A stretch of 64,000 nucleotides of DNA from Takakia lepidozioides (GCA_030704615.1 CM060731.1:71982001-72046000); one strand, 5' to 3'. Counted from the first letter of the stretch, positions 12,253 to 49,350 are shown. Numbers and translations: made by a program. The notes: generated by a model from the sequence alone, not told the origin.

Positions 12253-15200
12253 GAAGTGTTCTGCTGCTACTAAACCACCTACCCATCCAAGTTTCTTGTA
12301 GCTATCAATCCACTGTGGCTCACCGGTACTCTTGTGCTTGAAATCCGGTCTTCTGGGATGGATCTGGACCCACGCTCCATCCGTGCCTCCTTCAGCTATC
12401 CCTGCTTCGGCAACAATAACACATAGATCCTCCCCCTTGCTGCTAACAGCTGAACAATGACAACCTGAGATTTATCTAGCAAAGACCCCAAACCCCCTTT
12501 CCACAGACTAGTTCCTTAGCTGAATTGCTGACAGACTTTAAAAATTTGTTGGGGAGCTTCTGTAGAAGAACAGACATTCACCTTTCTGCCTCGGTGGTCC
12601 CACCATTGACTGAAAGTTCGAAAAACAGTCCCTCCAAGTCTTCTCATCTTCTGTGTGTTTGGTTTTCAGATATTTGCCTGTCACCCCATGGGCAGTAACA
12701 TGTGAAAAACACTCGAAGCTACCATAGATCCACCTGACGAGGTAACTTACAAAAACTCAACGTGAGAAATTACTGCAATCTGAGAAGATGTCAAAACAAG
12801 CCCAAATCTGTTGAAGAGGAAGGTGCCTTCCTTGACCTTGTCTCGTGAAAGCAGCTAACTTTTCATTCCACCAAGGAGGATTCACCAAACCCTCAATCCA
12901 ACGGACCTCTTGTGTGCACTGCTTGTGTCTGTAGGCCGCTGGTGATCTTCTGATTGGTCTGTGAAAACCACAACGATGCAGCTGAAAAGACTGATTAGAA
13001 ACACAGCCTCCTAAGACCAAGGTGACCATCCCAAATACCCTCTAAACACCAGGAAATGCAAATAGAGCCTCCATTTCATGAACAACCACTAACACTGAGG
13101 GGAAGAGCTTTTTGCAGAACAGACAAACTTCTTCACATCATACATGGAGAAAGCCCCACCTTGTGATCGTGTTTGTCCCCAGGATTGCGAGGAATCTTCA
13201 AAGAACTTGTGCCAGAAGCTCCAAGATTGACCTGAGTGCCAGAAACTCCAAGGGCATCAACACTATGACACTTTCCTCTATGGAGGAGAGCTAATGTAGC
13301 TTTCAACAACATTCATGCAAGTCACTCAGGGCTCTTTCGCATGTAACAGATTGAGGAACAGAAGAAAAAATGTACAGATGCTCAACAGGCTTGTGCACGA
13401 TAAGGCCCCCTCTCTAGCTCACTGCGAGTCATACTCACTTTCATCTCCAAGTTTCGAACGGTCTCCACCATCCCCACCAGACTCAAAACCGCACACTGAT
13501 GTCTTTCCACCATCACTTGACTGTTCTCGATCTTGTGCCATGGCAATTAGCTTTCCTTTCACCCTAGGAAGATTAACCCAACCTTCACTCCCTACAGCCT
13601 GTCGTGTGCATTGCTTACGTCGGTAGTCTGGAGAGTTTGAATTAGTCTGTGGAAACCACCAGGGACCAGCTAAGCAGCCACACTTTTATGACCAAGCTAC
13701 AATCATCGACCCTCCCACATAATTTGCACACTCCATGGAAAAGATCTTGAGCATCCTACATACATTCATCCTTGCTCGGGAAGAAGCTGGATACAGACAG
13801 TAAGAGCAGTTCTTGCAGAACAAACCGACAATCTAACGTCACTCAACAACAATGCAGTCCACAACATTTTACGTACCATAATCGGTCAAACTCCCTCCAT
13901 AACAGAATCCTTCACTTCCTACATGAAGAAACCTCACTTTGTAAACGCTGTAGTCCCACCATTGTGAAATATCTTTCAAGAACTCCTGCTAGCGCTGTTC
14001 CATGCTCCAGCCTTGACCTGCGCACCAGACACACCGGTTGCAGCCCGTGTATGACTATGCTGTATGAGTTTAATCGCAAAACGATTTGTGTTATGTATAA
14101 CCTGAGTTCATTGGCATCCCCGACGATTTGGGACGTGCCATAACCTCCTCCACTATGCGCCACGGACTCTTTCAGCTTCCCAGCCCTTGACCTGCTGCAT
14201 TCTGCGATAAACAGAGAGACACAGAGCCTTTGCATCTGAAGCGGAAAGGTGCCCAGTCAAATCTTGGTCTCTTGTTAGACCGGCTCTTTGAGCTCTCGGC
14301 TGCAATAGCAGCGTATTGTGCGAGAACACTGCACATATTGAATGGATACTTTAATAGTTGTATCCAAGGCTTGTTTAGCGGCCTCTCATCTTCTTATATT
14401 CTTGAAATTTGCAGTAGCCGTCAGGCGAAGTGGCTCTTAGTTACGCCGGCTTTGGCCGGAGTCTCTCTCTCTCCCTCTTGGGGCACATGAGCAGTTCGCT
14501 GCATCCTTAGCAGCAGCTGGATGTGTGGGCCCGCAAGCGACTGCAGCCTGGGCGTTCCATGCTTCCAAGGGGGCAGCCCCAGGGGGTGGGCACATGGGGC
14601 GGTTGTGGAGGAAGAAGAGTTACTAATGAATGGCCCATTTAGTCAATAAAATATGGTGAGCTTGAGAATTACCTCCAAGCAAGCTAGCCTGGGCTTAAGA
14701 AGTGGCCACCATAGTGCCTCTAAAAAATAAAGGCCGAATTATTTTCACTAGCCAACCAGAATTACCTCCAAGCAAGCTAGGGTTTGAGGATTAGGGTATG
14801 GGGTTTTGGTTGGATGGTGGTTTACATCGGAGGCTAAGTTAATTTGAGAAGGATTTGTAGGTGATCATGGAGGATGTTGAACTTGTTATTGTACTTTGTG
14901 TTCTCTTTTTGTTCCACGAGGGTCTTTCCATCATTCCAAAAAAAGGAAAACAGCTCTTATACTTCCAAGGTCGGTCAAAATGGCCAGCCCTATACCAGGT
15001 GCTCACCACAAAAAGATATTTTACAATTCTTTCAAGTAGAGAGTGTTCATGATCAAGTTAGCTACAACCCATACCAACTACCCTCATTCAATTCCGACTT
15101 TGTGACAAAGATTGGCACCTATTTTTCCAATGAACACACAAATGGTTAGCATAGAGGTTGTTAAAAATGGCCAGCCCCATTTCAGGTGCTCCCATCTCAT

Positions 15201-25949: not shown

Positions 25950-26591
25950 CTAACCTCTTAACCTACTACTCCAAGACACATCGGTTGACATAAAAAGAAG
26001 AAGTTGAAAGTAAAGAGGTGGGAACATACCTAAAAACACACAAGGGTCAGTAATCCCTAGGGGACTTGCATATCTCGCTAGCCAAATCCAATCAGGGTGA
26101 GAGCTATCGACAGGCATCTGAACATTTGCACACTTCCCGTAATTCTCCTCCATGTACTCTTGAACTGTCGGAGATGACATCATGCCAGAAAAGAATGGCC
26201 ATAAAGCCTCAACAAGATCCTCAACAAAAGAATCTCGCCCCTCCTTGACGATCGGCATTAGAGTGCCATCAAAGGATCTCGGGTAAAAACCAGTGTTCAA
26301 AGGGTTCCTCAGGGCTTTGGTGGGCTCATCATCAATCAAAAGCGTTTGGCCTTTTAGGCCGTAGGGCTTACAACTTCTCCCGAAGTGTTCCCAAAGACCA
26401 ACAATGTCTTTAACGTAGAACGGATGTGTTGAGGCAATGTAGGCAGGAAGCTTGGTGCAAGTATCCCGACACCAGATAAAGCAAAATTTCCTGACCATAT
26501 CCTTCGGGAAGAAGAGCCTCACGACGTCTTCCTCTTGAAGCACCTTTTTTGCCACCTTCCTCCCATCGGACTTCATCATTGTGAAGTTCAA
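25950..26591 (-). CDS. FCP1/NIF-like HAD phosphatase domain ORF (partial, probably TE-borne or a pseudogene)
   Basis: FIWCRDTC..KDIVGLW..QTLLIDDEPTKALRNPLNTGFYP; the N-terminal DxDxT motif is not seen. Confidence 0.55.
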   Translation of the reverse strand: MNFTMMKSDGRKVAKKVLQEEDVVRLFFPKDMVRKFCFIWCRDTCTKLPAYIASTHPFYVKDIVGLWEHFGRSCKPYGLKGQTLLIDDEPTKALRNPLNTGFYPRSFDGTLMPIVKEGRDSFVEDLVEALWPFFSGMMSSPTVQEYMEENYGKCANVQMPVDSSHPDWIWLARYASPLGITDPCVFLGMFPPLYFQLLLFMSTDVSWSSRLRG

Positions 26592-26685
26592 ATCCTCCTG
26601 CTCTGAGGCAGAAGTGGTGGACTCCGACGCCGCACACTACAAGGAATCGCCGAAATAACCACTCAAAAAACAACTGGAAACCCAG

Positions 26686-26756
26686 TGTCGTGCGCATACG
26701 TTCTAGCTAGTTTCACACTGTGCTTATTTAACTTGACAGCTGTCGTGCGCATACGT
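26686..26756. repeat. 3' terminal A-B-A repeat block
   Basis: A=tgtcgtgcgcatacgt at 26686-26701 and 26741-26756; B=38 bp at 26701-26738. Confidence 0.92.
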
Positions 26757-27085
26757 ATCGTTACACAACTACATCACTGTCCAAACCACACCACACATAT
26801 ATGCACAATAAAGTAGTCTGCCACAATCGCCCCCCTAGCTGGTGGATAGGTCCCTCTAACTCCAGATAGCTACAAGATGTAATAGCCACAGCCGTACTAA
26901 GTCCTCTATCACTGTCCCTATCGTGCTCAAACTCTATCAACCAAGAGGCCGGGTACAAGAGTAGCCCCATCGTTAGTCGTCGTCTTGCAATCTGTGAACT
27001 TGAGCCAAGATCTCGTGTGTTCAAGGTCTCCTAGTAGCTTGGCCTTGCATTTCTTGTTAGCCTTCTATGGTTGTATCCACTCCCA

Positions 27086-29071
27086 TTATCCAATGCAATG
27101 TGGACATAACCAATCCCCATCCGGAACCATCTCAAGAGGTGGAGTCAAGCATCCCATATGCCAACCTCTAGAGCATCGATCACACACCAGCATGGTGGCT
27201 GCCCCTTTAGCAGACCCACACAACATGCACCTCAAACCTGCAGATATCACTGCCAGGTTTGGGTCAATCCTGCCATCGACATTCGGAAGGTGACATGGAG
27301 CACAATTACGCACATGGTCCTTCCAAGTTATGCCATCCCGACCCTCCAAGACCAAGACGCCTGAGGGCAAGACCTCTCGAACCCTCAAAATAACACGTCC
27401 TGCAGTCACATCCAGGGTCGTAGGAGCAGTCTGCTGCAGATAGACATAGTCACCAGGGTTGAATCTCCGAACCCCAAGACGATAGCCCCCACCACGTATG
27501 GTAGCATACCTCAACGTATCACGGTGTTGTGCAATGGCAAGGTTCTCGAAAGCCATGGGCATGACTCTCTTGAACAACTCTGCACACTGCTCACATGCAC
27601 GTGCCCACACGTCCGGATCGTCAAGGTTAAGAACTGTAGCAGCTTCTCTGCGAATGGATGTAGGCAAATCCGGCTCTCGGCCAAAGAGAAGAAAGTATGG
27701 TGAGAAGGAGGCAAGTGATGCTTGCTTGCTGAACCTGTAGCCCATGGCTAACCAGGGTAACTGAAGGTCCCAATCTCCTAGGTGTCCCTCCTGCAAGCCA
27801 TACTTGCGCAAACCCCTCTTTACTGTCTGAACAACTCTCTCTGCCAAGCCATCGGCCTCAGGATGATCCCGAGAAGTGGTGCGGTGGTCTATCAAGGCCT
27901 TGTCACACAAAGCCTGAAACTCCCCCAAGAACTCTCTCCCTTGGTCCGTGAGTACCTCAGCTGGAGCACCGAATCAGCTAAGCACACAATCCAAGAATGC
28001 ATACGCAGCTCCCTCACTAGCCTTATCAGGCAATGGAACCAACTCAATCCATTTGGAGAAGTGCTCCACCATCACCAACACGTACTTGTTGTGACGCATG
28101 GTTTGTGGCAACGGCCCTGCGAAGTCAAGACTCCACCTGTAGCCCAATCCCATGATCGGAAGAGGGTGCAATTGTGGAGTAGGGGCGTTGAATGAAGCAC
28201 GCACCCTGTCACACACCATGCACCTAGCCACAAATTGTTGCACCTCTGTGTGCATACCACGCCACCAATACTGCCCCTGCAGTAGGCTATAGGTGCATCG
28301 CACCCCAAAATGCCCCAACTCCTCGTGGGCATGCCGCACTAACCGTGCCCGCTGTGTTGGGTGAGGCACTATCCTCACTTGACCATCCTCCCACACTCGG
28401 AGCAGGTGTGTCCCCTCCCACTTGAACCTCTTGGCTCGTTGTAGGATCCGATCCCTCTCCTTGGCAGTCACAGTGGCTGCAGTGTCTCCAGTGCGGAGGT
28501 AGTCCAACACAACTGAATCCTCATGTATATCTTTGGCGCCACCTTGCTCATTGCTGGCCTCAGGGTCCTCAGACACTTGATCTACAGTCATCCCTGTTGC
28601 AGGTCCAACCTGGCCTTCCGCTGCCAAGATACACAGAAATGCAGATGCATGCCATCCGGGCACCATCTCCTCGTCCGTCTCACCATGCCACCGAGCTCCA
28701 GTGTCATCCTGCTGGCTCATGCATGGATTGCGACTCAACCCATCTGCATTGCGATTGACCAAACCCGGTCGATGCACCACCTGAAAGTCATACTCTTGAA
28801 GGATGAGTGCCCACCGTGCAAGCTTCCCCGTAAGCTTGTCTGACTCCATCAACCACTTGAGTGGTTGGTGATCCGTGACAAGGGTGAAGAGATTGCCGTA
28901 TAGATAGCACCTGAAGTGTGCCACGGCCCACACTGCAGCTAAGCATTCTCCCTCATATGAGCTATACTTAGACTCTGCAGCATTTTTCGAGCGGCTAGCA
29001 TAAGCCACTACGAACTCTCTTCCCTCATCATCCACCTGTGTGAGCACCACACAAGCCCCAGCATGCTCCAA
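27086..29071 (-). pseudogene. Gypsy RNase H + integrase (HHCC, DDE) with C-terminal PHD finger
   Basis: VVAYASR/YEGECLA/TDHQPL; HAHEELGH..CMVC; WSLDFAG, TDQGREF, ADGLAER; CMLC..CDRC..WHMGC..WLCPHC; one in-frame TGA at 27974. Confidence 0.93.
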
Positions 29072-29163
29072 TCTGTATGCAGCTGAAAAGGTCGTCTCAA
29101 GATGGGCGCCGAGGTCAACCTCGCCTTGAGCTCTTGAAAAGCTTGTTCTTGCTCATCTTCCCA

Positions 29164-30045
29164 CTACCACTCCTGGTCTACCTTGGTCAGCTTGGTTAGA
29201 GCCTTTGCAATGGCACTAAATCCCTTAACAAACCGTCTGTAATAGTTTGCTAACCCCATGAAAGCTCGAACTCGGCTCACATCCGTGGGGCGTGGAACCT
29301 GTGCAATGGACTCTACCTTAGTCTGCTGTACCCCCAATCCTCCAGGATATATCATGTGACCCAGATACTCAATCTGGTTGTGGAAAAACTTGCACTTGCC
29401 CGGATGCAACTTCAATCCGTGCGTCCTTAAGCTCTCAAATACCCCCTGAAGGTGTCTCTCATGCTCCTCCACCGTAGCACTAAAGATGATGATGTCATCT
29501 ATGTAGCACCGAGCAAACTCCACCCCTGCTAGAATCCTGTCCATGACTCTTTGAAACTCAGCGGGAGCGTTTTTAAGTCCAAATGGTAAGAACCGCCACT
29601 GGTATAGGCAATCCTTCCCGTGCTCATTGATCCCCCAGAATGCCGTCTTTTGCTTATCCGCCTCCTTGATCGGCAACTGGTGATATCCGGATCGTAAATC
29701 CAACGTGCTAAAGACCTTGGAATGCCCAATGGCATCAAATATCTCCTCTGGTGTCGGCATGGCATACCTATCGGACTTGGTCTGACGATTTACAGGCCGG
29801 TAATCACCGCACATACGTCTCTCCGTCCAATTGCCATAGACATCTTTCTTGGCTGGCATCACTGTGGCTGAAGCATACTCTCCACCATAGAGCTCCACCA
29901 AACCTGCCTCCCAGAGATCTTGAGTCCTCATCTGAATCAAAGACCTCTCCATGTCACTGTATCTATAGGGTCTCCGAAAGATTGGCGTGTCAGTGGCCAA
30001 CTCAATACGGATCTCTTGACCCTTCAGTGCTCCCAAGTCCTTCAA
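29164..30045 (-). CDS. Gypsy reverse transcriptase
   Basis: RRMCGDYRPVN, FSTLDLRSGYHQ, LPFGLKNAP, CYIDD, KCKF..YLGH. Confidence 0.95.
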   Translation of the reverse strand: MKDLGALKGQEIRIELATDTPIFRRPYRYSDMERSLIQMRTQDLWEAGLVELYGGEYASATVMPAKKDVYGNWTERRMCGDYRPVNRQTKSDRYAMPTPEEIFDAIGHSKVFSTLDLRSGYHQLPIKEADKQKTAFWGINEHGKDCLYQWRFLPFGLKNAPAEFQRVMDRILAGVEFARCYIDDIIIFSATVEEHERHLQGVFESLRTHGLKLHPGKCKFFHNQIEYLGHMIYPGGLGVQQTKVESIAQVPRPTDVSRVRAFMGLANYYRRFVKGFSAIAKALTKLTKVDQEW

Positions 30046-30204
30046 ACTGAAGGCAAAGCAATTCCTGTAAGCCCTCAGGAACCGCCGTATACGTCGTCTC
30101 TCTCCTCCGGTGACAATGGGTCCAATGTCAGGCTCCCAATTGTCCTCCGTAACTGCAACCTTAAGTCCAGTGGGCTTAGAGGTAGAGGACGCGTCCCATG
30201 GTTG

Positions 30205-31581
30205 CTATGCTGCAACCTCTTGAGCAGTACTCCCTTCCTGCTCAGTCAATGACAAGGCCTCATCCTGCCCCATCATCTCATCATTGAGAACCTCCTCATC
30301 CCGAGAAGAATCCCCAACCTCATCCATCACAGCTGCCTTGGCTGCCAACTCCCTCTGAACCTCGAGCACCTCCCACGTGTGCCATGGATGTCTACACCTC
30401 GTGGTCCTCACCGGCTCGCCCCCACTCGCTGCCTGTACCATCTCGGTAGGCAGAGAGACCGTCAAGGGAAGTGCACTCCGCACTCTACGTTGCTCAGCCA
30501 TAGCCAAGCTGATAATCCAGGTCAAGCAATTGAGATCCATTGCTTGCCCCAACACCTGACGACGTGATGCCTCAGAAAGAGAAGGCACCGTCGTGGTCCC
30601 AGTGGAAAATCCCATAGCCCGCTCTCGCTCGTCGGCAATAGGCTCCACTAACTGTTGCAACTGGCTATCCCACAAGAGGCCAGGTCCACCATCCCGAAAA
30701 GCATGGGATCCTGGGAAGCTGAGCAGTGTAGGTAATGCTGCTCGTGGTTGACCCACCCTGTTGACCACTGCCAAAGGCGAACGGTCATCATGTCTCACAC
30801 GTTGAGACTGCCTCCCTGTGTCCAAAATGCCATCCACGGTGAGGTGTGCTGGCCGCTGCACTCCATCAAATGCACGCTTGAGCAGTGCGGGTGGCATCAA
30901 GTTAGTCCACCAAAGCCGTGGACGATGAGCCCGTGATCCCACTGCAGCTGCATCCAGCAGCACTGCTGACCCAAGCCACGACCGGACTTGATGCACACTG
31001 GCCATCACCCTGGCCCGAGAATCACCCATCAGTGGCACATTCTCCAAGATGTATGCTGGAGATACAGCTTGATGAAGCTGCAAGTGGCGCAAAACCCGCA
31101 CCATCTCCCAAAACAGACCCGTCATCGAGTCTCGCAATCCATTGCCATGCCCGGCTGATGAATGCCCTTGGCAGGGCCATCCTGCCACTATCAGATCAAT
31201 GGAGCCAACCTGCTCCAAATCTTGCGCCCCCAACAAGGAAATGTCTGCTGGCAAGGCTTGTTGGTATCCACGAACTGCAGACACAGGCAACAAGTCAGGG
31301 TACTGCTGTACCAACTGAGCCACATGGCGCAGTGAGACGCGTCGTGCAGTCTCATCCCTCTCCACATACAGGTAACGCCTTACCCGCACACCTGCCTGTA
31401 GCACAGCAGCCAATCCGGTGCTGATCCCGCCAAAAAAGTCTAGAAGGCAAATGCCTTCATCCATATACTGCCACACAATAGGTGTGGTATCCAATGGTGA
31501 CAACTGAGGTGGTCCTGGTGCAATACCCGCACTCTTTTCCTCTCCTGACGGTACAAAAGCCTCTACCCAGGCTTGTTGCAC
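30205..31581 (-). CDS. C5-cytosine DNA methyltransferase domain (DNMT3-like), in frame within pol
   Basis: Motif I LLDFFGGISTG, II YVERDE, IV AGWPCQGHS, VI YILENV, VIII SRAHRPRLWWTN, IX ERERAMGF, X RRQVLGQAM. Confidence 0.92.
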   Translation of the reverse strand: MQQAWVEAFVPSGEEKSAGIAPGPPQLSPLDTTPIVWQYMDEGICLLDFFGGISTGLAAVLQAGVRVRRYLYVERDETARRVSLRHVAQLVQQYPDLLPVSAVRGYQQALPADISLLGAQDLEQVGSIDLIVAGWPCQGHSSAGHGNGLRDSMTGLFWEMVRVLRHLQLHQAVSPAYILENVPLMGDSRARVMASVHQVRSWLGSAVLLDAAAVGSRAHRPRLWWTNLMPPALLKRAFDGVQRPAHLTVDGILDTGRQSQRVRHDDRSPLAVVNRVGQPRAALPTLLSFPGSHAFRDGGPGLLWDSQLQQLVEPIADERERAMGFSTGTTTVPSLSEASRRQVLGQAMDLNCLTWIISLAMAEQRRVRSALPLTVSLPTEMVQAASGGEPVRTTRCRHPWHTWEVLEVQRELAAKAAVMDEVGDSSRDEEVLNDEMMGQDEALSLTEQEGSTAQEVAA

Positions 31582-31599
31582 CCGTCGATCAGCAACCTG

Positions 31600-32958
31600 C
31601 TACAAATCCTTGCTCGTACCCCACAATGGAGTGTGAGCAACCATGGTAGGCAACTCCACCATACCATGCATGTCATTCTGCTCTGCTGGAGGTGGCACAT
31701 CCTCTGCATGGGCATTGCCTTCCAGCAACTCTCCAGACCAACTAACTGTAGCTGTAAAGGCGGCTAGTGTTGGCATCTTGCCCCGTTGGGCAGCCGCAAT
31801 ACCCCCAATGAATGTCACAGGGAGCTGTGCACGACGACCATCCTCTGACTGCCATCCAGGCCTGTAGAATGCTGACTCCTCCCAAAAGTCCAGGGTGAAG
31901 CCCATGGGGTATAACACTGCCCTACCAACGAGGACATCGTAAGAGACCGCGTCTGTCACAATGGCCTTGGCTTGCATCACTGAGCCATCTATAGGGTGAT
32001 CCGGCTGCAGTCTAATGGCCAACTGATGCCGTGTCATGCCCCGAGCCTGCTGTGATCCTCCCAGAGATGTCTGTATCTGGAAAGGACAAGGCTCCATATC
32101 CGCCTCCATGAGGCCCAAACCTACAATAGCAGCCCTGCCCAACATCAATGGCTGAGCTCTCGAGTCCAACAAGACCCGCAGTGGCCGGTACTTCTTGCCT
32201 GCCGGTCCACTCAAAGAGAAAATGCCATCCTGGTTGTCTAACAAGACAACTCCAGGTGTCACCATGGCGCGCTCAAAGACTGGCCTAGCTGGCAGCTCCG
32301 TCAACCTGACAGCTGCAGCTTGCCAGGGCGCAGCCGTGGCAGTCTTGACCCTCAAATCCGAGGATCCCTCTACCACTACACCTTCCACTAACTCCGCAGA
32401 AGATGAAGTGACCTCCCCACTCTCACAGAGTGTTGCTGCTAGTCTGAACACTGCAGCTGGCCTTACCCCCGGCGTCGCAATCATGGTTGCCGAGAACAGT
32501 GGGGCTTGACACACAGAGGTGGCTGCCCCCAATAACACACCGGCTGCACTAGCCTTGATAGCAGGTGTCAGTGCTGCACGTGTAGCTCTCCCCAATGGCA
32601 TAGTAACCTCCGCCTCGGTAACAGTCGGGCGAGAACTAGGTGCCATGGATGGCGTCGACACAGTCTCCGCCAATGTGAATGACTGAGGAAGCCTCGCCTG
32701 ACGGCTTGCCTCCCCACGTTGTGGATCCAACTCCACCTCTGCACCTCGTGGCTCAGGAACTCGTGCTGCTCCTCGAGTCACGGCTGCAACAGACTCCACC
32801 TGCTCTAGTGGTAGTGCTGCTCCGCACATAAAGCCCATGCCTCCCATATTTCTATCCTCAGGAGCAGGGGGTGGACCATCCCGCTTGGGAGCCGGTACCG
32901 CCTGAGCTATAGCCATGGCAGCGAGCCTTTGCTCTAGCTGCTGAAGCCGATTGGCCAT
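31600..32958 (-). CDS. Gag-pol linker and aspartic protease
   Basis: RVLLDSRAQ (DSG mutated to DSR) and YDVLVG motifs. Confidence 0.75.
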   Translation of the reverse strand: MANRLQQLEQRLAAMAIAQAVPAPKRDGPPPAPEDRNMGGMGFMCGAALPLEQVESVAAVTRGAARVPEPRGAEVELDPQRGEASRQARLPQSFTLAETVSTPSMAPSSRPTVTEAEVTMPLGRATRAALTPAIKASAAGVLLGAATSVCQAPLFSATMIATPGVRPAAVFRLAATLCESGEVTSSSAELVEGVVVEGSSDLRVKTATAAPWQAAAVRLTELPARPVFERAMVTPGVVLLDNQDGIFSLSGPAGKKYRPLRVLLDSRAQPLMLGRAAIVGLGLMEADMEPCPFQIQTSLGGSQQARGMTRHQLAIRLQPDHPIDGSVMQAKAIVTDAVSYDVLVGRAVLYPMGFTLDFWEESAFYRPGWQSEDGRRAQLPVTFIGGIAAAQRGKMPTLAAFTATVSWSGELLEGNAHAEDVPPPAEQNDMHGMVELPTMVAHTPLWGTSKDL

Positions 32959-33036
32959 GCCTTGGTCAACACCCTGACCTCCGCGTCCTTGGCCATGTTG
33001 AGCTTGCCCTTGGCCTGCACCTCGTGCCCGACCACC

Positions 33037-34407
33037 TCATCCTCTCTGGGCAGGTCCACCTCGCCCCCGGCCACCATTGTTCCCTTGGAACTGGCCTGGG
33101 GGCAACTCAGGGTGCAAGTCATAACACTGAGCATCTCCATGTCCATACTTGCCACAATGCCCACACTGCAACTGTGCAGGCTGTGCTTGTGCCGGCCTTC
33201 TGCCATTCTCTGGGCAATCTTTCTTGACATGGGGTCCTCCACATGTCCAACATACCACCCCTGGTTGCAGTTGGCCTGCAAAAGATGCCACGGGCCTCTG
33301 CACCTGAGGTCCCCTGTAAACTCCATGGAACTTGGGTTGGGAAACCTTGCCCCCCTGACCACGCCGCTGGGCAGTACCTTGTGCCTGTGGGCTGGCAGCT
33401 GCGCCTCGTGTAGGCATGTCCTCGCCAAATCCAATGGTGACAACTCGCTCCTCCACCATGTTGAGCTCAATCCACTCAGCCAGCAGAAACACATCTGCTA
33501 ATGTGGGTTGGGCTGCTTGTAACAGGGTTGCATCCCGCACCCTTCTCCTGAGCTCCTTGTCCAAAATGCCATACCAGAACTGGATTGCCCGAGCTTCAGT
33601 AACCCCTTGGGTCATAGTTATCAAGCGCCTCATACGAGTGTACGCCTCTCACAGGCTCTCATTGGGTTTGCGCTGGAAGTCTTGCAAACTTCGCAGCTTC
33701 TCTGTCCGTACACCTTGGTAGTTCCTCCGCAACTCCTGGAAGAACTCCACCACCGGGTTGAATCTAGGCACATGTGTTGTTGTCGTGGCAGGAGGAGTAG
33801 TAGCACCTTTTGAACTGGTACCACCTGCAGAAGTACCGGCACTACTTGTTCCACTACTAGTGCTGGCAGTGGGAGATATTGGTACTAATGTCGCTACTGG
33901 TCGTGTTGTTCCTCGAGTAATGGAGACGTAGTCAGGTGACCAATACATCCTCCACTCTTCAATTTCTGCTTCATGTCCTCGCCTGAACTCGTGGTAATCG
34001 TCCGTAGGCGGGCCCTCCAAATGCTGGAACAGTCCCTTCCACGCCATGAATTGGGTGAATAGCTGTGGATTGCGCATCTGCTGCAAATCACACCAGCTCT
34101 CAAACTCCTGGATAAAATCATCCAACTCGATTGTGCCCACAGCTCCAGAGTACCTACGAGGCCCCTTGGTAGCTCCATACATCTCCTCCATGTCGTCCCA
34201 CAACAATGGCGAATGAAACGGCACACCTGTTGATGAAGCCTCCGAGTCTGTGTCTGACTTTGCACTAGTTGAGGGTGGAGGTGAAGGTGGTCTGAAACGA
34301 ACACCTCGTCTGGTGAACCCACTCTCACTGCTACTGCCTGTAGCCGTACTCCCCTCAGAACCCCTGGGTAACTCCGTGATGACACTCACAATGTGCACCT
34401 CCCCCAC
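33037..34407 (-). pseudogene. Gag with two CCHC zinc knuckles
   Basis: FQRKPNESL*EAYTRMRRL; CWTCGGPHVKKDC and CGHCGKYGHGDAQC; in-frame stop at 33649. Confidence 0.85.
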
Positions 34408-34925
34408 GTGACATTATAAGGCTCTATTACTAATTCTAATAGTGACACGGGTAGGCACCTGTTGCAGTTTAAGGGTCATATCCCAGTGGCTCAGGGCACC
34501 TACACCTGCATCCACCGCAAGAACTCATGTGGTTGGCTGGTCATCAACCCAGTCTCACCACAGAAGAAACACTGGTGGTCTTGCTGGTCATCACTCCAGC
34601 CTCACCACCGACAGCATACTCTAGGATTGACCGGTGATCAAATCCGGCCTAATCCCTATGAAAGCAAGCGCCCACACAAAACCACATGGCGCACAGTCAA
34701 GCATGCAAGTGTTGGGGGGGATCCAAACACAAGAAATCAAAACATCAACACCCCCACACCAAAATCCATCTGCAGTGCTGACTTGCAGAATATCCCAGCC
34801 CAAAACCCCGGACTGACTGGCCTCCACCAAGAGAGGCTTTGGCAACTACAAGTACAAGGTAATGAAACTAGTACAGAGATGGAGGGGAAGAATAGAAGCC
34901 CGACCAAGCAAGATCTAATCCTGAT

Positions 34926-35675
34926 CTATGCTATCAACTGCCAGACTTCTCTCAAACTGCCTCGCTCTACATGATGGTAAGGTGTAGGAGGTATATCTAT
35001 GTCCAGAAACTTGCCACTAACCTTGTCCCAAGCTACAGTAGCTCGCTCTAACCAACCCTCCTCCTCTTTCTGCCAGGTAGAGACAAAGCAATACTCCCCT
35101 ATCTCCCGCTCACTGAACACTAAAGAAAACAAAGGTAGGGTCTGATAGTCTCTCAACTCGAAAGCTTTGAGACGGTTGCGGGTGTCCTCATTGCGAATGA
35201 CTGCATCTCCTTCACGCACAACAAACATGTCATTGCTAATGAACCCCCGCTCGTGGTTGCCCTGTGTAGAGCGTATCCGGCTGCAACCATGTCTGATTGC
35301 ACAAACTTGTGTAGCTCCTGCTCCTCTGCTCCAGTACACCACGGCCTTGTGGCTGAACACCTTGGTCCCCAGGGCTGTCTTTGGCTGTGTTCCAAGCCTA
35401 GCTTTCACCCACTTTGGTATTTCACCTACAGCTGCAGAACTGCTGGCTCCAACAGAGTTCTGACTGTCCAAGGCGATATTGAGGCCCTCAATGCCAACTA
35501 CAGCAGTCTGTTGTCTACTGCTAATGCCTGACTCCCAGTATGCAATCAACTCGTCCAATTGTTCTCCACTCAAATCAGTCTGAGTTCCTTGGGAAACATA
35601 AATCTTGTCCCCTTGTGTGCACAGGCTAAGAGAAGAGACCTGGCCTTCAATTACGTCCTCATTTCCCCCAGCCAT
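34926..35675 (-). CDS. Accessory ORF of the retroelement, unknown function (249 aa)
   Basis: ATG-initiated, uninterrupted ORF upstream of gag on the same strand, inside the TSD-bounded element. Confidence 0.55.
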   Translation of the reverse strand: MAGGNEDVIEGQVSSLSLCTQGDKIYVSQGTQTDLSGEQLDELIAYWESGISSRQQTAVVGIEGLNIALDSQNSVGASSSAAVGEIPKWVKARLGTQPKTALGTKVFSHKAVVYWSRGAGATQVCAIRHGCSRIRSTQGNHERGFISNDMFVVREGDAVIRNEDTRNRLKAFELRDYQTLPLFSLVFSEREIGEYCFVSTWQKEEEGWLERATVAWDKVSGKFLDIDIPPTPYHHVERGSLREVWQLIA

Positions 35676-35926
35676 ACAAGGAGTACATCCCCAGATTTAT
35701 CTCTCATGTAGACCAGAACAGGTTCTAGAAACAGAATTGTGGATCTTTCATAGCACACTCACACTCTAAAAAATCCATAGATTTCTAGCAGAGTCCCAAA
35801 AACAAAAACCAGGTCTACATAGGTAGATATTCCCTTTCTGCAGCTATCCCCCCAAAAACTGAGTCAAACGGAGCTCATTTGACAAAGATATGGCCAACCA
35901 GGCTCTAAATCATTTAAATTAGATCA

Positions 35927-35964
<38 letters not shown>

Positions 35965-36137
35965 CCAAAATGTTCTCGCCATTAAAAACCGTTCCCAGGT
36001 TTCATTTGTAGTTACAGGTGCACCACCACAGGCTTGTCGCTCTAGCTCGCAGGTCTTGCACAGATCTTTGCACACAGCGCCCGTCTCTGAAGCTTCGCCT
36101 ACAGTTTGTGCAGATTTTGATACGGTTTGCTTCAATA

Positions 36138-36604
36138 ATGGCTGCCTGTGCTGCATCTTCCTGGGTGGCCACTGGCATTCCCACTCTGTCCGGAAGCAAG
36201 AAGGTTGCAAGAGTGGCCTCCGTCCATGCCAGCTTCCCCGGCCTGCGATCTGGCAACCGACTGGATTCCCTGGCAATGAGCAACTGGTCGTTTTCGAGCC
36301 AACTAGAATCGCCAAGTCCTCGGCGAAGACCACATGCAATGCAGCGGTTGTGATCTCCTTGAGCACCGGAGCTCTTTTGTTTCTGGGACGATTTGTGTTC
36401 CTCCCCTTCCAGAGAGACAATGTTGCAAGGCAAGGACTCCCTGTACAAAATGGCGTTACTCACTTCGAGGCCGGTGATATCCGGGCACAGGAGGTCGTTG
36501 GCTTTTTGAAGATGAATGACCCTGCTGGTTTAACCCTCGTCGATGTGCTTGCTTGGGGAGCTCTGGGTCATGCCATTGGTTTCGCCATCCTGGCCATTGG
36601 TTGA
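36138..36604 (+). pseudogene. PsaG: Photosystem I subunit G pseudogene (frameshifted, 3'-truncated)
   Basis: Transit peptide MAACAASSW..; then, in another frame, [60 protein letters not shown]. Confidence 0.88.
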
Positions 36605-36623
36605 GAGAGAGCAGGCAGGAGCC

Positions 36624-36818
36624 ATGAGTTTTTGGTTTCACTAGTACCAGGTGGTGGGGCGAGCACTGCCTACCCCAACCGATGAGCAGCCGAAGGCGTA
36701 CCGCATGACGTTGTGGGCGACCAACGAAGTGCGGGCAAAGTCCAAGTTTTGGTACTTCCTCAGGAAGTTGAAGAAGGTGAAGAGGTCACACGGGCAGATT
36801 CTTGCCATCAATGAGATC
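36624..36818 (+). pseudogene. RPL18A: 60S ribosomal protein L18a (eL20) 5' fragment
   Basis: [52 protein letters not shown]. Confidence 0.9.
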
Positions 36819-36911
36819 TCCGTCTCTCCGTGTCTCTCTCCATCCGTCAGCGACAGCAGAGATTTGTTGCCGATGCAGGAAAGAACTTGGGTGTGAGGAA
36901 AGCAGAGCAAA

Positions 36912-37185
36912 ATGCCGCACTCGAGGCTATCAGCGAGAGTTCACTCTCCCACTATAGATGTGCTGGTGGACTTGGGCCATCCTTTTCTGAACTACACTTT
37001 GGACGGCTTCATCAAGATTGGAGGGGTGGAAGCTGCTCATGGAACATTGCTAGAGGCCTTCTCAATGTTGAAGAACGAAAGGGTGACAAAGCGTGATCAC
37101 TTTTAATCACGACAAGATGATTCGCACGGCAATCACTGGTGGCGCCATAGCCACTGCTTCAGAGTTGATTCGGTACCTCACCTAG
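36912..37185 (+). pseudogene. OEP16: OEP16 (plastid outer envelope pore, Tim17 family), internally deleted
   Basis: SPTIDVLVDLGHPFLNYTLDGFIKIG joined directly to C-terminal AITGGAIATASELIRYLT*. Confidence 0.8.
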
Positions 37186-38173
37186 GTTGCCATTGTATGG
37201 ATTAAATTCTCCGGGCCTTTACGGAAACCCCTCCGAGAAGCAGATGAGGCTCTCGGCAGATTGCCCGTCAGATTCTGCTTGTAAATCAATCTTGTTAGCC
37301 AGCGATTGCAGGGCCTGCACCTGAAGCTCCAGGAACATCAATAATCAGCAATCTCCTCCAGCAAAATGGTTTTAAGCGGAACTCACTAGCTCAATGAGTT
37401 CCAGATCAATAACCTTTCCAAACCTGCCTTCAAATGCTCACCTCTGAGATCAGAACTCCTGCCAAACACAACTGTCAGATGCTCAATCTGCACAGTTGAT
37501 GAGAACACCTGTGCCACATGTCCTCAGACATCATCTTTTGATTAAATCGCTCAAAGCACTCGCTTGCATGTGACGTTCCTACACATATCCGCCACTTCAC
37601 CATAGCGTAACCATCACCTCGTCCTCAACGAGGTTGTGTGAAGTCGCCAGCAATTGCAGAATGAAGGCAGAACAGGTCAAGCTGCCAAGGGAGCCGGAAG
37701 ACGTGAAGTTCCGTCTTAAAATACGCTGCGTTTGCCCATTAAAGTTGCACTATCAACTAACACCTCCATCCGTTTCTCACTTTCAAAACAAAAACCACAA
37801 GTGCTAAAACTAAACTCACCTCTGGCACTCACAGATGCAAGCTCATCTCTCTCTCGAGTGATTGACAAGCTAAGAGACACACTGTTCACACTAGAAACAA
37901 CATGAATCCATCGCTATCACTCTTAAAACAGAAGTCGAGCCAGGGGCACCCCAAGCTATGGGGACTCCACCCCACAACAACCTATACTCCCATCATAAGC
38001 ACACTCAGTCCTAAACGATGCAGGAGCTCGGTCGCGCAGGCTCAACTCGAGAGAGATGAGCTGCGCGACTGCCGCTCTCGTGAAGATAAGACGGGTCAGG
38101 TGTCAAACTAAACTTGACACCTGATTTAACACTTGACCTAAATCCAAGTGTTAAATACAAATAACTAGCTTTA

Positions 38174-38211
38174 TTCTAGCTAGTTTCACACTGTGCTTAT
38201 TTAACTTGACA
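38174..38211. repeat. 5' terminal repeat B of the retroelement
   Basis: Identical 38-bp copy of 26701-26738. Confidence 0.95.
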
Positions 38212-39707
38212 CCAGTCGTTTCAGTCAAAAAACGACTGGGCGACTATGAGTCCGAAAGGACAAGACCTATCGGACAGCCCTGTCGTTCCGGTCATTCGGA
38301 GTCGTTCCAGTCAGTCGTGACGCCGACTGGGGGGTAATTTTTAAGGTGTGGCCACCTGGCGTTGCCATGCGCAACGTTGACTGAATCTTGGACCTTGACC
38401 ACAATGACTTTTGACCGGGGGGTGTGACTTCCCCACGGTCTACATGCCGGGCATACAGCCGTGTGGCTGTGTGTCGGTACTCCACGTGTTTTCTGCCGTG
38501 ACATTCCGGATGTGGCCACGTGCAGGCCAGAAGCCACACCACGTGGCGCGATGAGTTGTCTGCTGGTTGCCTTTACGACTTGCAAGTAGAGTCGACAACT
38601 AGAGTGTTAAGTGACAAATGCAACTGGAGGTTTGAAATGCACTACTTCGTTAGTGATATACATTGACTGTGGGTTGGATACCAGGCACTTCTAGTGGTCG
38701 CAGTGACTTGGGGGCTGCGACTTGTGGTTCATACATGTGCAATACTATTTCTACTGTCTCCGAATAGCAACACAGATGCTACGATGGCCCTACTACAACA
38801 TTACAACCAACACAATCCCCTGCACACTACCACTAATCATCCCATTGCGGATGTGATTGAGACTGGAGAACATATAGGCCATCCATCAAAGCACGAAAAG
38901 AAATAACATGATGAAGAGCACGTGACATTGTATTAAGACAATACCTCAAAACCATCCCATACAATGCACAAACTCATGAGTCCGTAACGACAATGATTAG
39001 ATTTAAAAAAAATGAAATGAGTGTGACTTATTCTCAAGTGGTGGAACCTGGCAACTGCAGGCAGTGTTTAGACTGGCGTGGGACAATGAGGGCAAGCTGA
39101 GGAGAAGACACAAGCATGACGTTGTGTCATTTGAGTCGGGGAATATCACTACACTGGTACAAAGTAGCAAGCAGGTGAGTTGATTGCTAGTAATTCTGCT
39201 AAGCATTTGCTTGATGGCCCTCCTATACCCCTTTTCTGGTCTGACCTGCGCATCTCTATGAGCATCCCTATCTTTCTTGTTTCTTGTCTTGTCTTTGAGC
39301 TTCCCATGGACATAATAAAGTTTATTTCCTTTCTTTCTTTCTTTCTCTCTACATGTCAGGAGAATTTGGAAGCTACCCAATCTCACAACAAAGCTCCATT
39401 TCTATTGAGAGACATTCCAGCTTCATGAATTTTTTGGGTCTCGTGATGTTGTGTGTTTCAGACATTTTGTGTCCCTCCAAAATTTTGTAATAAAATTTGT
39501 GCCTGTTCGTGGTAATGTCGTTAAAAGATGGTTTCTCATTTTCATGGCGTGTATGCATTTACAACAGTGGCTTCTATGCACTTCATACAGTGAACAATTC
39601 CTGGCTTGTAGGCTATGATTGTAATGTACAGTAAACAGCTGTTTGTTTGAGTATCTCATTCGCATCATTCTGGCAATCTGCATGAGCAAAGGGTTTAAGG
39701 TGCAAGC

Positions 39708-40355
39708 CTAGGGGGTGATGTATGTATTGACTCTCGGGTTCAGTGCAAGTTCAAGGACAGCCTCCTGATGCCTAACATTGGTTATGGGTCAAACAAGAAG
39801 ACAAAGCACCTAGGGGATGATTTATGGACTCTCGGGTTCAGCGCAAGTTCAAGGGCAACATCCTGATGCCTAACATTGGTTATGGTTCAAACAAGAAGAC
39901 AATGCACCTAGGGGATGATGTATGGACTCTCAGGTTCAGCGCAAGTTCAAGGGCAGCATCCCGATGCCTAACATTGGTTATGGGTCAAACAAGAAGACAA
40001 GGCAGTCGTTTCGTCAATTTCTGTTACATAATATGGAAGACCCGGAACTCCTCCTCATGCATAAGTTACAAGGGCCAAATTCATTTCCTATGTTGTTGTC
40101 TAATGGGTCGGATGAAAAACCTTGAAAGTTGCAGTGTTGTCATAAGACAGATGAGGACATTTCTACCTCATTGGCAGGGGCAGCAGGACACATTAGAATC
40201 TAAACCATGTTTAGCGTGGTCATGTGGTGCGTTGCAGGAAGTATAGTGTTGAAATGACTCACAATGTGTTGACACTGAAGAGGAAAGCTAAAGAGGAGCG
40301 TGCTGCACACCAGAATGCTGTAGTAAGCAGAGGGACAAAGTCGCAGAATGAAAGA
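39708..40355 (+). pseudogene. RPL32: 60S ribosomal protein L32 pseudogene with a triplicated ~98-bp segment
   Basis: [23 protein letters not shown] occurs 3 times, followed by F..FLLHN..LLLMH, a probable intron and [18 protein letters not shown]. Confidence 0.85.
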
Positions 40356-46887: not shown

Positions 46888-49350
46888 GTGGAACAGGTGG
46901 TTGCCCGCCTGCAGGAGATGCAGTACACTATCGCAGGGCTGCACGTCAGCCCTCGCTCCATGCAACGCACCCGCTACTGCCACCGTGATTCCATCACCAG
47001 GTCTCGCTTCTTTCCTGTATCAAATAAAGAGTTCTGCAGGACGTGCAGAATGGTTGATGTACGAGCGTTCACAAATAGTGCGCCTGAATGGGATGAGTAG
47101 AGGAACCATTTCTGTGTGTCCAGTGCTACTGCACGACATAACGTGTCTTCCGAACCTGGCCCATAGTTTTGAAAAGCTTCACATTTGTGTTATGTTTGTG
47201 CATTGCTTGGAGGGATCTCTGAAATTGCAGACATACGGAACATGCAGAATGTCAGCTCCTCCGGCCTCCTAACTCTGCGCTGTAGTTTCCTGAGGATTTG
47301 AAGCAACTGGATTCAAGAGATGTTGGCCTTGCCTCAATTTTGTGGTTAGGATGGCTTGAGTGAAACTCAGTTAAACTCAATTACCAACAGCTTGTTAGCT
47401 GTATCCTTTCGGGGGTTGTGGCCATCGTGTAGCGCATGACGTACAAGTTAGGGGTTTGACAATTTATCTGCTGTACAGGATGCACAAGCCATCCGACTTT
47501 ACTCCCAATAGGAGCTGCGTTTCCATGGAACGTCGAGGTATTGTTCTTTTGGCCAATGGTATGTCTCATTTGTGAAGACATAACTTTCTCTATCGAGGGA
47601 CTAAGAAACTGACTTGACCTGCAGAATCAATCTCACAGCCAAAGAAAGTTTTTATCATGTATCGGTCTTGGAGGAGATGGGGGAAAAGTGTTTGGGTGGT
47701 TATCTAAAGAGGGTGCTGTCTGAGGAGGGTGTGGGGCGTATGGTAGGTGGATGGAGTCATTGGTCTTCGCCAGCCAAAGAAGTTCATGAAGTCGTTTCTG
47801 AGATTTTGATGGCCAGTAAGTTTGCCAAGGAGATCGCCACAGTACTAGCAAGCTCTCTCCAAGATACCCCTGACGCTAGGCCCCCTGTAAACATTGCACA
47901 GAAACCAGTCATGATGGGCTGCAAAGATGCAAGAAGAAAGGACACTCCATATCCAAGCAAGGCACTCTTAAGCAAAACCATGAGTGCCAAAAGAATTCCG
48001 GAAAAGGCCGTAAACAAATTCAGGGAAAGTCCTGCTGCCAACGCTAATGAAGCTGGCAATTATGGTGAGGCAAGGGAGACAAACAAGCGCAGCTATCAGT
48101 CCCCTTTATACAAGCGGAGAGCTATTGTAAATGTGGTGAGAGCATCGCCAGCACCAAATCAGATCACCCCAAGACCCAAGTACCGGTCTCCACCTGGCTG
48201 CAGTGTGATATCATGTAGCACAGACAAGAGGGCAAGATCTCAACATGTTTTGGAGAAGGAACAGGCTGTTCCAAAGGGATCCTCTGCGAAAATTGCCCGC
48301 GCACATGAATTTACTGATAAGCCAGTTGCACCCCGCAGGATATCCATGGAGGCAACAGAGATCAGGAGCCTGCGAAAACCATGGAGGCTTACAAGTGCCA
48401 ATGCTAGCAAGGCTGTCCTATTCACAAATCCAGTGTTTACTTCATCACCATCCCAGTCGCCTGCCAAGCCCTCTCGGCTGGCTTCGTCTGCTAAGACTCC
48501 CAAGCTTAAGGAATCGACAAGGAGGACAAAGAGCTGGCTAACTCGCCGAGTCTCCATGGTAAGACCTGCGTCTGGAGAGATCACCCGGAAGCTTCTCTCG
48601 ACTAGTCTTGCACCGGCCAAGTCCCTTCCCTCTCTCATTTCTAGGCTTCCTTCCAGGGGAAAAAGGATCGCAAGAGCTGTTGGGAACACTCCGCAGACGG
48701 ACTCTGGTCCTCTGGTCACCAAGTCTCACATCAAATCAGGAGGGCCTTTACCACCACCACCTGCCCGATATGCAGAGGTTGCATCACTGAACAGAACCAC
48801 CGGCAACACACTGATGCCTCTGAAGACTAAGAAAAATGTTGGATCAGCCCCTGTGAGTGACAACGTCACCCAAGTGAGACAGGGCAGCAGGCATCTGAAA
48901 CTAGTAGACAGTAACATCAAGTTGGGGCATTACAGTGAAAGACAGCACGCCAAAGAGATAGACAGTAGGGTGCAGAGTAATCTAGCCCCCAGTTGCAACA
49001 GTTCTGTTGACGTGAATGTGGAGCTTGGGCACGCAAAAGCCCCAGCTCCCTTCAACGCTGCACGGGAAAGCGCTGGCAAGGAAAACGATCATGTATCTAG
49101 CTGTGCACCTGCTCGCATGTTTCGCTCGGGTGTTGGAGGCGTGGGGCTGCGGCAGAGATCTCTAGCTTCCTTTAAGGGGGAGGGGGCAGGGGCTGGCGAG
49201 ACCCATGAGCAGACGCCTGGCTGTACACCTGCGGTTATGTTCCTGCGCAGCAAGTCTGCTGGACATGATCACTTAATCGCAACCAAAAGCAACACAGGTA
49301 TGCACAGAGTACTCGACAGACCAGTGTACTTTACTGCCTTTGGTTGCTGA
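46888..49350 (+). CDS. TAN1: TANGLED-like microtubule-binding division-plane protein (multi-exon; start and final exon uncertain)
   Basis: VEQVVARLQEMQYTIAG..VSPRS, VSEILMASKFAKEI, VLFTNPVF; large basic Ser/Pro-rich exon 47614-49350. Confidence 0.65.

Follow-up and report, generated by a model that had tools for sequence, protein, structure and literature searches.

A DNMT3-like methyltransferase ahead of a conserved stop codon in a decayed Ty3/Gypsy retrotransposon of Takakia lepidozioides

The closest described system is KnitGypsy-Dnmt3 of Klebsormidium nitens, which combines Gypsy domains with a non-permuted Dnmt3-like domain under purifying selection (de Mendoza et al. 2018, PMC5890265). 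Its methyltransferase shares one ORF with reverse transcriptase (RT) and RNase H, and its acquisition was placed in the K. nitens lineage (PMC5890265). When assayed in yeast, the Klebsormidium enzyme did not methylate, a result deemed inconclusive by its authors, and the enzymes of SymbioDIRS-Dnmt3 elements methylate CG in yeast (PMC5890265). Why retrotransposons retain a host-silencing enzyme is an open question according to the accessible text of the same account (PMC5890265). A 2026 preprint refers to 'streptophytes (Gypsy-DNMT3)', in its accessible part without naming bryophytes or land plants (10.64898/2026.05.21.726589), and bryophyte element-borne DNMTs are not mentioned in the accessible text of PMC9516144, PMC11982613, PMC10952607 and PMC5784723. 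In the searchable literature, outside which most subscription papers lie, we found no paper describing the bryophyte elements, the stop or the mechanism of the ends treated below.

Here, we describe a decayed Ty3/Gypsy retrotransposon of about 11.5 kb on the minus strand of a Takakia lepidozioides sequence (the window, i.e. the whole stretch of 64,000 nucleotides that was analysed). As far as the published description of KnitGypsy-Dnmt3 reaches, the element is of the same kind, known until now from one alga, and differs in the arrangement of a conserved stop. Like its algal counterpart, it represents a Dnmt3-like Gypsy lineage with an A-coding-B-A-B structure under purifying selection. A single open frame joining the DNMT to RT and RNase H was found in remoter relatives, among them L067, L079 and P0187, and not in the window.

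Anatomy and decay of the window element

The order Gag-protease-RT-RNase H-integrase, the Ty3-like RT and the DDE integrase place the element in Ty3/Gypsy, and its TG..CA ends and target duplication agree with the 4-5 bp expected of this group (Table 1). A continuous minus-strand frame runs from 34413 to 29164, interrupted by stops at 33649, 33037, 31600 and 30205. A preliminary description of the locus had reported a Gypsy element with a methyltransferase (MTase) in frame with the protease upstream and the RT downstream, and the shared phase was confirmed on the minus strand. Its placement of the MTase inside Pol has to be revised, as the domain instead closes the Gag-protease frame, ahead of a conserved TAG-CAA-CCA.

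Table 1 Features of the element and other sequences in the window. Positions are counted from the first letter of the window.
Feature	Position	Strand	Remarks
Whole element, TG...CA ends	26686..38211	-	4-bp target duplication CTGG on both sides; same ends in related loci
Target duplication CTGG	38212-38215 and 26682-26685		from the sequence
5' repeat A1, 353 nt	37859..38211	-	first 38 nt repeated at 26701-26738; end set by analogy with L044/L070
Likely self-priming pair	37840..38062	-	37840-37858, just past A1, complementary to 38046-38062 within A1
Extra leader sequence, approximate limits	34900..37700	.	poly(A) run at about 35932-35960
Gag, two zinc-knuckle-like motifs	33037..34413	-	homologous to N-termini of Mp4g09160/Mp8g17980
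Gag-breaking stops	33649-33651 and 33037-33039	-	window copy
End of Gag, then aspartic protease with its core at about 31780-32290	31603..33036	-	phmmer homology
DNMT3-like C5-MTase domain, 327 aa	30490..31470	-	Pfam, profile, AlphaFold, Foldseek
Catalytic Cys codon; motif VI Glu codon	31171-31173; 31042-31044	-	MTase domain
Acidic, variable tail closing the Gag-protease-MTase frame (94 aa)	30208..30489	-
Stop TAG (30205-30207) followed by CAA CCA (30199-30204)	30199..30207	-	likely programmed readthrough signal
Ty3-like reverse transcriptase	29167..30204	-	RVT_1 E 1.4e-32; Ty3 RT nearest solved, E 2e-46
RNase H and N-terminal half of integrase	27977..29152	-	RT_RNaseH E 2.1e-30; Integrase_H2C2 E 2.3e-16; rve
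Decay stop inside integrase	27974-27976	-	stop in 0/30 related loci
C-terminal half of integrase, PHD finger at end (about 27095-27229)	27086..27973	-	PHD E 1.2e-10
Polypurine tract (26827-26836) and repeat B1 (26741-26826)	26741..26836	-	same in related loci
Palindromic B/A joint GACA-GC-TGTC	26734..26745	-
3' A2-B2 remnant: 38 nt of A and last 15 nt of B	26686..26738	-
PPR-E-E+-DYW protein, intact-looking	9754-12471	-	303-nt tandem repeats; diverged partial copies at about 1600-2950
Second reverse transcriptase ORF	6781-8487	-	RVT_1 E 1.6e-29; probably LINE-type
Ribosomal protein L32 fragment	39722-40015		three tandem 98-nt copies
Rpb1-family fragment, 677 aa, single exon	58112-60145	-

Pfam gave no match for the protease region of the window copy, and Asp_protease_2 is present in homologs of this region. 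The frames of homologs end 57-182 aa past the MTase. The nearest solved relatives of the PHD finger are those of CHD4, PHF12, KDM5B/5A and ATXR5. Downstream of the MTase, the RT of the window copy is broken by a stop (29164-29166), and a frameshift lies near 29050-29150, between RT and RNase H. With several stops and this frameshift, the window copy is dead. The family as such is very repetitive: 84,627 contigs of the host run X1 align over 8.5 kb and cover 30 of 30 bins, a figure that does not equal the copy number.

The leader measures 3.4 kb in the window copy compared to about 1.3 kb in L044 and L070, and read-contig depth drops in the bin 34736-35000. Roughly 2-3 kb of it are seemingly without counterpart in sister elements, and gene capture inside the element is possible. 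Two fragments resemble what we take to be decayed host mRNAs, one ribosomal protein L18a-like (+, 36645-36896) and one O-methyltransferase-like (-, 36002-36529), and Pfam indicated no significant family for the leader ORFs.

The land-plant host with a PPR-DYW gene nearby, as stated in the preliminary description, is in line with the PPR protein with E, E+ and DYW domains that the window encodes. Matches of the Rpb1-like ORF reach 52-65% identity, a cluster with a Sphagnum member 43% and Riccia 39%; the fragment would likely represent a fast-evolving Pol IV/V-type subunit. No significant Pfam family was detected for the long ORFs at 47605-49350 (+, 581 aa), 53617-54924 (-, 435 aa) and 25950-26636 (-, 228 aa).

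The methyltransferase and its relatives

The MTase ORF comprises 464 aa between stops (30205-31599, minus strand). In the HMM search that had been suggested for it, DNA_methylase (PF00145; E 2.5e-12; score 47.3 bits, cut-off 22) was matched as the only Pfam domain, without PWWP or ADD. Motifs I, IV (PC), VI (ENV), VIII (RxR), IX and X were found in non-permuted order, and this motif reading bears out the full C5-MTase set noticed beforehand. The resemblance to DNMT3, likewise part of the preliminary description, was recovered at the levels of sequence, profile and fold. The closest solved structures by sequence are those of DNMT3A (E 6.8e-10), and a profile of 25 homologs scored DNMT3A at 82.8 bits, DNMT3B/C at 77-79, DRM-type enzymes at 46-36, M.HaeIII and M.HhaI at 34 and 31 and DNMT2 at 25. 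The AlphaFold model (pLDDT 80.2, pTM 0.85) is of low confidence at the target-recognition region (residues 227-256), and the matches listed by Foldseek were DNMT3A/B/C throughout (best E 5e-17, TM 0.67/0.79, 21% identity).

Of 172 full-length homologs, 166 retain the catalytic Cys, the Glu and the two Arg. To estimate selection, dN/dS was calculated by NG86 for 861 MTase pairs, which are non-independent and of which 379 were saturated at synonymous sites. The 109 MTase pairs with dS 1-3 gave a median of 0.20; the values to compare were 0.30 in 61 protease pairs, 0.35 in nine Gag pairs and 0.05 in six RT pairs. The dN/dS check named in the preliminary description thus indicates purifying selection on the MTase, at about 0.2 in deep pairs. 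Young MTase pairs showed a higher value (0.65), as expected for decaying copies, and between the MTase of the window and those of the main family dN is 0.21-0.26, with dS near or at saturation. As far as can be told from sequence, the enzyme is very probably catalytically active in active copies. The element displays no excess CpG loss (observed/expected 0.49; adjacent ORFs 0.34-0.45, window as a whole 0.48); CpG/CHG depletion is non-diagnostic here, and no compositional trace of self-methylation was detected in the window element. A further observation concerns the residue preceding the catalytic Cys, where Glu replaces Pro in 67 of the 172 homologs.

Homologs of the MTase comprise 178 proteins of similar length and 58 longer ones. 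The named close hosts are Marchantia polymorpha, M. paleacea, Calypogeia, Riccia and Sphagnum, with identities of up to 74%, and the remoter ones Chromochloris, Monoraphidium and Scenedesmus. A protein library clustered at 50% contained 257 MTase homologs at E up to 1e-30. From a metagenome scan with 273 related stretches, 80 loci were retained, most of which also carry protease, RT or integrase matches in unchanged order; the family with the most members shares about 90% identity with an annotated protein of Sphagnum troendelagicum. Two architectures occur, namely protease-MTase-RT, as in the window, and RT-RNase H-MTase-integrase-PHD, whose full order is present in 39 proteins including Scenedesmus. 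A large green-algal group with the MTase between RNase H and integrase plus PHD includes P0156, P0158, P0160, P0183, P0191 (Scenedesmus) and P0174 (Chromochloris). By the sequences compared, the MTase domain has moved its position within one lineage.

The MTase and RT trees of 70 elements are congruent, and the distances in the two domains are correlated (rho 0.68, 0 of 999 permutations). Both trees took in element-borne domains only, and the affinity to DNMT3 rests on the profile, sequence and fold scores. The protease-MTase-RT group received a UFBoot value of 98 in the RT tree and only 52 in the MTase tree. It might be supposed that the element picked up the MTase once or recently from a host, a bacterium or a virus and that the gene plays no part in transposition, and the neighbours suggested by a protein language model do include phage MTase clusters. 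We give next to no weight to this explanation, against which stand the 257 homolog clusters, the congruent trees and the purifying selection. Moreover, viral contigs yielded partial matches only (57 loci, E 8e-14 or weaker) and prokaryote genomes one partial match besides the contig L138, which is the element itself, with no close source in either. The MTase is retained in sister copies, and of the possibilities that the preliminary description had named as contrary to its view, a one-off insertion and a recent capture are both contradicted by these results. L138 (CADCWO010000201.1), from a genome labelled as cyanobacterium, is a plant-type retrotransposon with the junction TAG CAATCA; together with P0022, a protein labelled as belonging to a bacterial MAG, it likely reflects eukaryotic contamination.

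The conserved stop and the split terminal repeats

Both anchors needed to score the junction between MTase and RT were present in 58 of 81 cases (loci plus window), and 48 distinct junctions remained after dropping 23 loci and 10 duplicates. Junctions were scored via an anchor on the RT match, as tblastn aligned the stop region in one locus only. TAG or TAA stands at the RT start in all 40 distinct junctions with an MTase identity of at least 46%. It is followed by CAR-YY(A/C) in 36 of them and by strict CAR-YYA in nine, and the remaining four deviate at the first base only (CAACCC 27, CAACCA 3, CAATCA 3, CAGTTA 2, CAACTA 1, first-base variants 4). The 27 junctions with CAACCC, one base off the strict motif, belong to one family and are non-independent, and the independent lineages number about seven. 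Among 617 other in-frame stops, only nine carry such a context. Hexamer variation alters the encoded residues while the nucleotide pattern is maintained. In 28 of the 40 junctions RT continues in the phase of the MTase despite linkers of differing length; the other 12 are frameshifted (11 in the L001-type family, and L053), which we read as decay.

The host's own runs contain no variant of at least 2% on the nine bases (789 X1 contigs), and five positions nearby vary, including 30197, 30198, 30210 and 30211. The stop at 33649 was found as a stop in 0 of 33 related loci, that at 33037 in 0 of 27 and that at 31600-31602 in 4 of 43; position 31602 carries another letter in 99.7% of the summed X1 depth. 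Since the stop at 30205-30207 is conserved in relatives and host copies and the other four stops are mostly absent, it is a conserved family feature and not decay. The stop at 31600-31602 is decay. The earlier statement that only C-to-T-type stops separate the domains therefore fails for 30205-30207, conserved in 40 of 40 junctions.

Stop-bearing elements form one clade (UFBoot 91 for MTase, 97 for RT) and single-frame elements fall outside it; the stop thus likely arose once. L061 sits within this clade, and its junction was not scorable. Eight remoter loci (MTase identity of 41% or less) are without the stop signal, and P0187 holds the MTase within one open Gag-Pol frame, so that a high MTase stoichiometry is not required across the lineage. 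In Marchantia, the intact homologs Mp4g09160 (1278 aa) and Mp8g17980 (1248 aa) carry Gag at the N-terminus and extend 77 aa beyond the MTase; Gag-protease-MTase homologs of 1230-1440 aa that end soon after the MTase further include P0137-P0140, P0142-P0144 and P0147-P0149.

Tobacco mosaic virus is described as having no readthrough signal other than CAR-YYA 3' of the stop (PMC2194720), with a readthrough of about 10% in vivo and a functional UAA (PMC2754532). UAG CAA CCA of the window fits this type I signal (UAG-CAR-YYA), and the downstream frame is open and in phase. In contrast to the viral figure, obtained in vivo, readthrough in the window family is predicted from sequence context. We consider it probable that RT-RNase H-integrase-PHD is produced by readthrough of the stop, and by analogy with the virus the MTase would exceed RT about tenfold, at a ratio near 10:1. 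With a real stop and the MTase still linked to Gag, RT-integrase could also derive from reinitiation at a nearby ATG or from splicing. In the L001-type family an in-frame ATG immediately follows TAG/TAA CAA CCC (in nearly all 27 junctions), and the Marchantia gene models P0126, P0127, P0131 and P0135 join MTase to RT. However, the window copy, L002, L058, L026, L030, L073 and L138 are without an in-frame ATG after the hexamer, the out-of-frame ATG of the window overlaps base 30198, which is different in 99% of the host depth, and the frame is preserved across linkers of varied length. We regard both routes as distinctly improbable and prefer readthrough.

The ends of the element are likewise unusual for Ty3/Gypsy in that two complete identical LTRs are missing in the window element and its relatives, where the repeats are split as A-ORFs-B-A-B or A-ORFs-B. 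An ordinary LTR pair in the window was considered and rejected, since only a 46-nt repeat turned up, which is explained as the A2 remnant. The longer arrangement occurs in L044 and L070 and partly in L014 and L019, with A of about 340 nt and B of about 115 nt; A begins with TGTCA, and B comes after the polypurine tract and finishes with CACGACA. Full A2-B2 is present in L044, L070 and L019 and mostly deleted in the window copy. The inner palindrome GACA-GC-TGTC was found in 9 of 20 loci with sufficient 3' sequence, including the window, down to 40% MTase identity, and eight of the 11 loci without it terminate directly after B. Target duplications are exact over 4 bp in four of five loci complete at both ends, and the fifth matches in 3 of 4 positions.

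Complementarity between the bases after A1 and a stretch within A1 spans 10-17 nt. It was one of the two best inverted matches in 12 of 32 loci, and many loci extend too little upstream to show the pairing. The pairing sequences of the window and of the L001-type main family differ, and the pairing is kept in both; in the latter, a TATA-like box precedes the partner by about 30 nt. By standard rules of reverse transcription, polypurine tract and primer site would enclose the unit B-GC-A. Self-primed reverse transcription would yield a B-A-ORFs-B-A cDNA, the ends of which would be joined to a circle, and the integrase would open the palindromic CA-GC-TG joint to give A-ORFs-B-A-B. Split repeats, palindromic joint and likely self-primer suggest integration from a circle, with a DDE integrase predicted to act on the circle joint. 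For the complete course of self-primed cDNA, end joining and circle opening, the sequence features leave us at about even odds, and the short A-ORFs-B form is accounted for equally well by B-B recombination.

Possible role of the enzyme and known systems

Our overall reading, to which we assign a probability of roughly 0.55, is that the MTase at the end of Gag-protease would, through low-rate readthrough, be packaged at capsid level and methylate the cDNA before integration. The main product would be Gag-protease-MTase, with readthrough supplying RT-RNase H-integrase-PHD. As the MTase lies on the Gag side of a leaky stop, the enzyme is predicted to be physically linked to Gag, far above RT, and would be present in the particle at many copies, at about capsid level, where it would methylate the element's own cDNA. 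We lean towards the cDNA as its main substrate. The most likely purpose would be a pre-methylated arrival, by which a new copy resembles host heterochromatin. PHD fingers of the CHD4/PHF12/KDM5/ATXR5 type read H3 tails unmethylated at K4, and the finger of the integrase may direct insertion into silent chromatin, a setting suited to a methylated copy.

The main rival to cDNA marking is that Gag-protease-MTase acts in the nucleus in trans, where methylation of the element's genomic copies or of other transposons would hold the element itself in check. The predicted MTase abundance is above the need of two cDNA molecules, and many Marchantia gene models belong to the MTase-element family. In Marchantia met mutants many TEs are derepressed and TE non-CG methylation rises strongly, and 'methyltransferase activity' is enriched among up-regulated genes while host enzymes hardly change (bioRxiv 10.1101/363937). 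However, the authors of this preprint propose RdDM for the hypermethylation (bioRxiv 10.1101/363937), the element MTase is without a PWWP or ADD targeting module, and in the green-algal group it sits among the cDNA machinery, between RNase H and integrase. We therefore consider action in trans unlikely. DNMT3-type enzymes have short and loose target sites, which renders highly improbable a sequence-specific MTase that marks the B/A joint or the cDNA ends and thereby guides integrase cutting or blocks autointegration. Such marking would be in line with the conservation of CACGACA-GC-TGTCA(T/C)G down to 40% MTase identity and with the presence of the MTase domain alongside the split-repeat design both here and in Klebsormidium (PMC5890265).

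Methylation of the cDNA, our preferred reading, may be placed in a wider picture of an ancient green-plant Ty3 lineage with a capsid-level DNMT3-like enzyme made via readthrough, a circular pre-methylated cDNA that is opened at the palindromic joint and, when derepressed, a partial contribution to host TE non-CG methylation. As a whole this picture is quite unlikely; if it were true, the MTase of derepressed elements would account for the unexplained hypermethylation in the Marchantia met mutants. The lineage reaches a genetic model, since Gag-protease-MTase genes that look whole are annotated in Marchantia polymorpha, and Marchantia methylation mutants with active TEs exist. The published count of five Marchantia DNA methyltransferases excludes element-borne enzymes (PMC5784723), and bryophyte methylome studies may thus overlook a methylation writer.

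In comparison to known enzymes, the catalytic domain of human DNMT3A/3B is the best sequence and fold match of the element MTase and shares its motif order and catalytic residues. The element MTase is about 21% identical to it, is without PWWP/ADD, and has a longer insert past motif II and a different target-recognition region. DIRS/Ngaro elements share the split direct repeats and, in SymbioDIRS-Dnmt3, the Dnmt3-like domain. However, they are characterised by a tyrosine recombinase and no target duplication, whereas the window element possesses a DDE integrase with zinc-binding domain and PHD finger, TG..CA ends and 4-bp duplications. Tf1/Sushi and the plant element Tcn1 resemble it in the complementarity between the bases after the 5' repeat and the predicted 5' end of the element. 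They are chromoviruses with ordinary LTR pairs, and the window element instead has a PHD finger, the MTase and split repeats. Tf1/Sushi and Tcn1 are described as self-priming Ty3 elements (PMC6317226). In-frame stops are described for the retroelements SIRE1, MuLV and Tca2 (PMC2754532, PMC2194720); the stop separates gag from pol in MuLV and Tca2 and pol from env in SIRE1, whereas it divides Gag-protease-MTase from RT in the window element.

Likened through its published description, KnitGypsy-Dnmt3 shares with the window element the Gypsy domains, the catalytic residues, purifying selection and the DIRS-like A-coding-B-A-B repeats. The accessible account of it makes no mention of a PHD finger, self-priming, a palindromic joint or a target duplication (PMC5890265). 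In the window element, by contrast, a conserved stop follows the MTase at the close of the Gag-protease frame and the host is a land plant; the lineage described here spans bryophytes and green algae.
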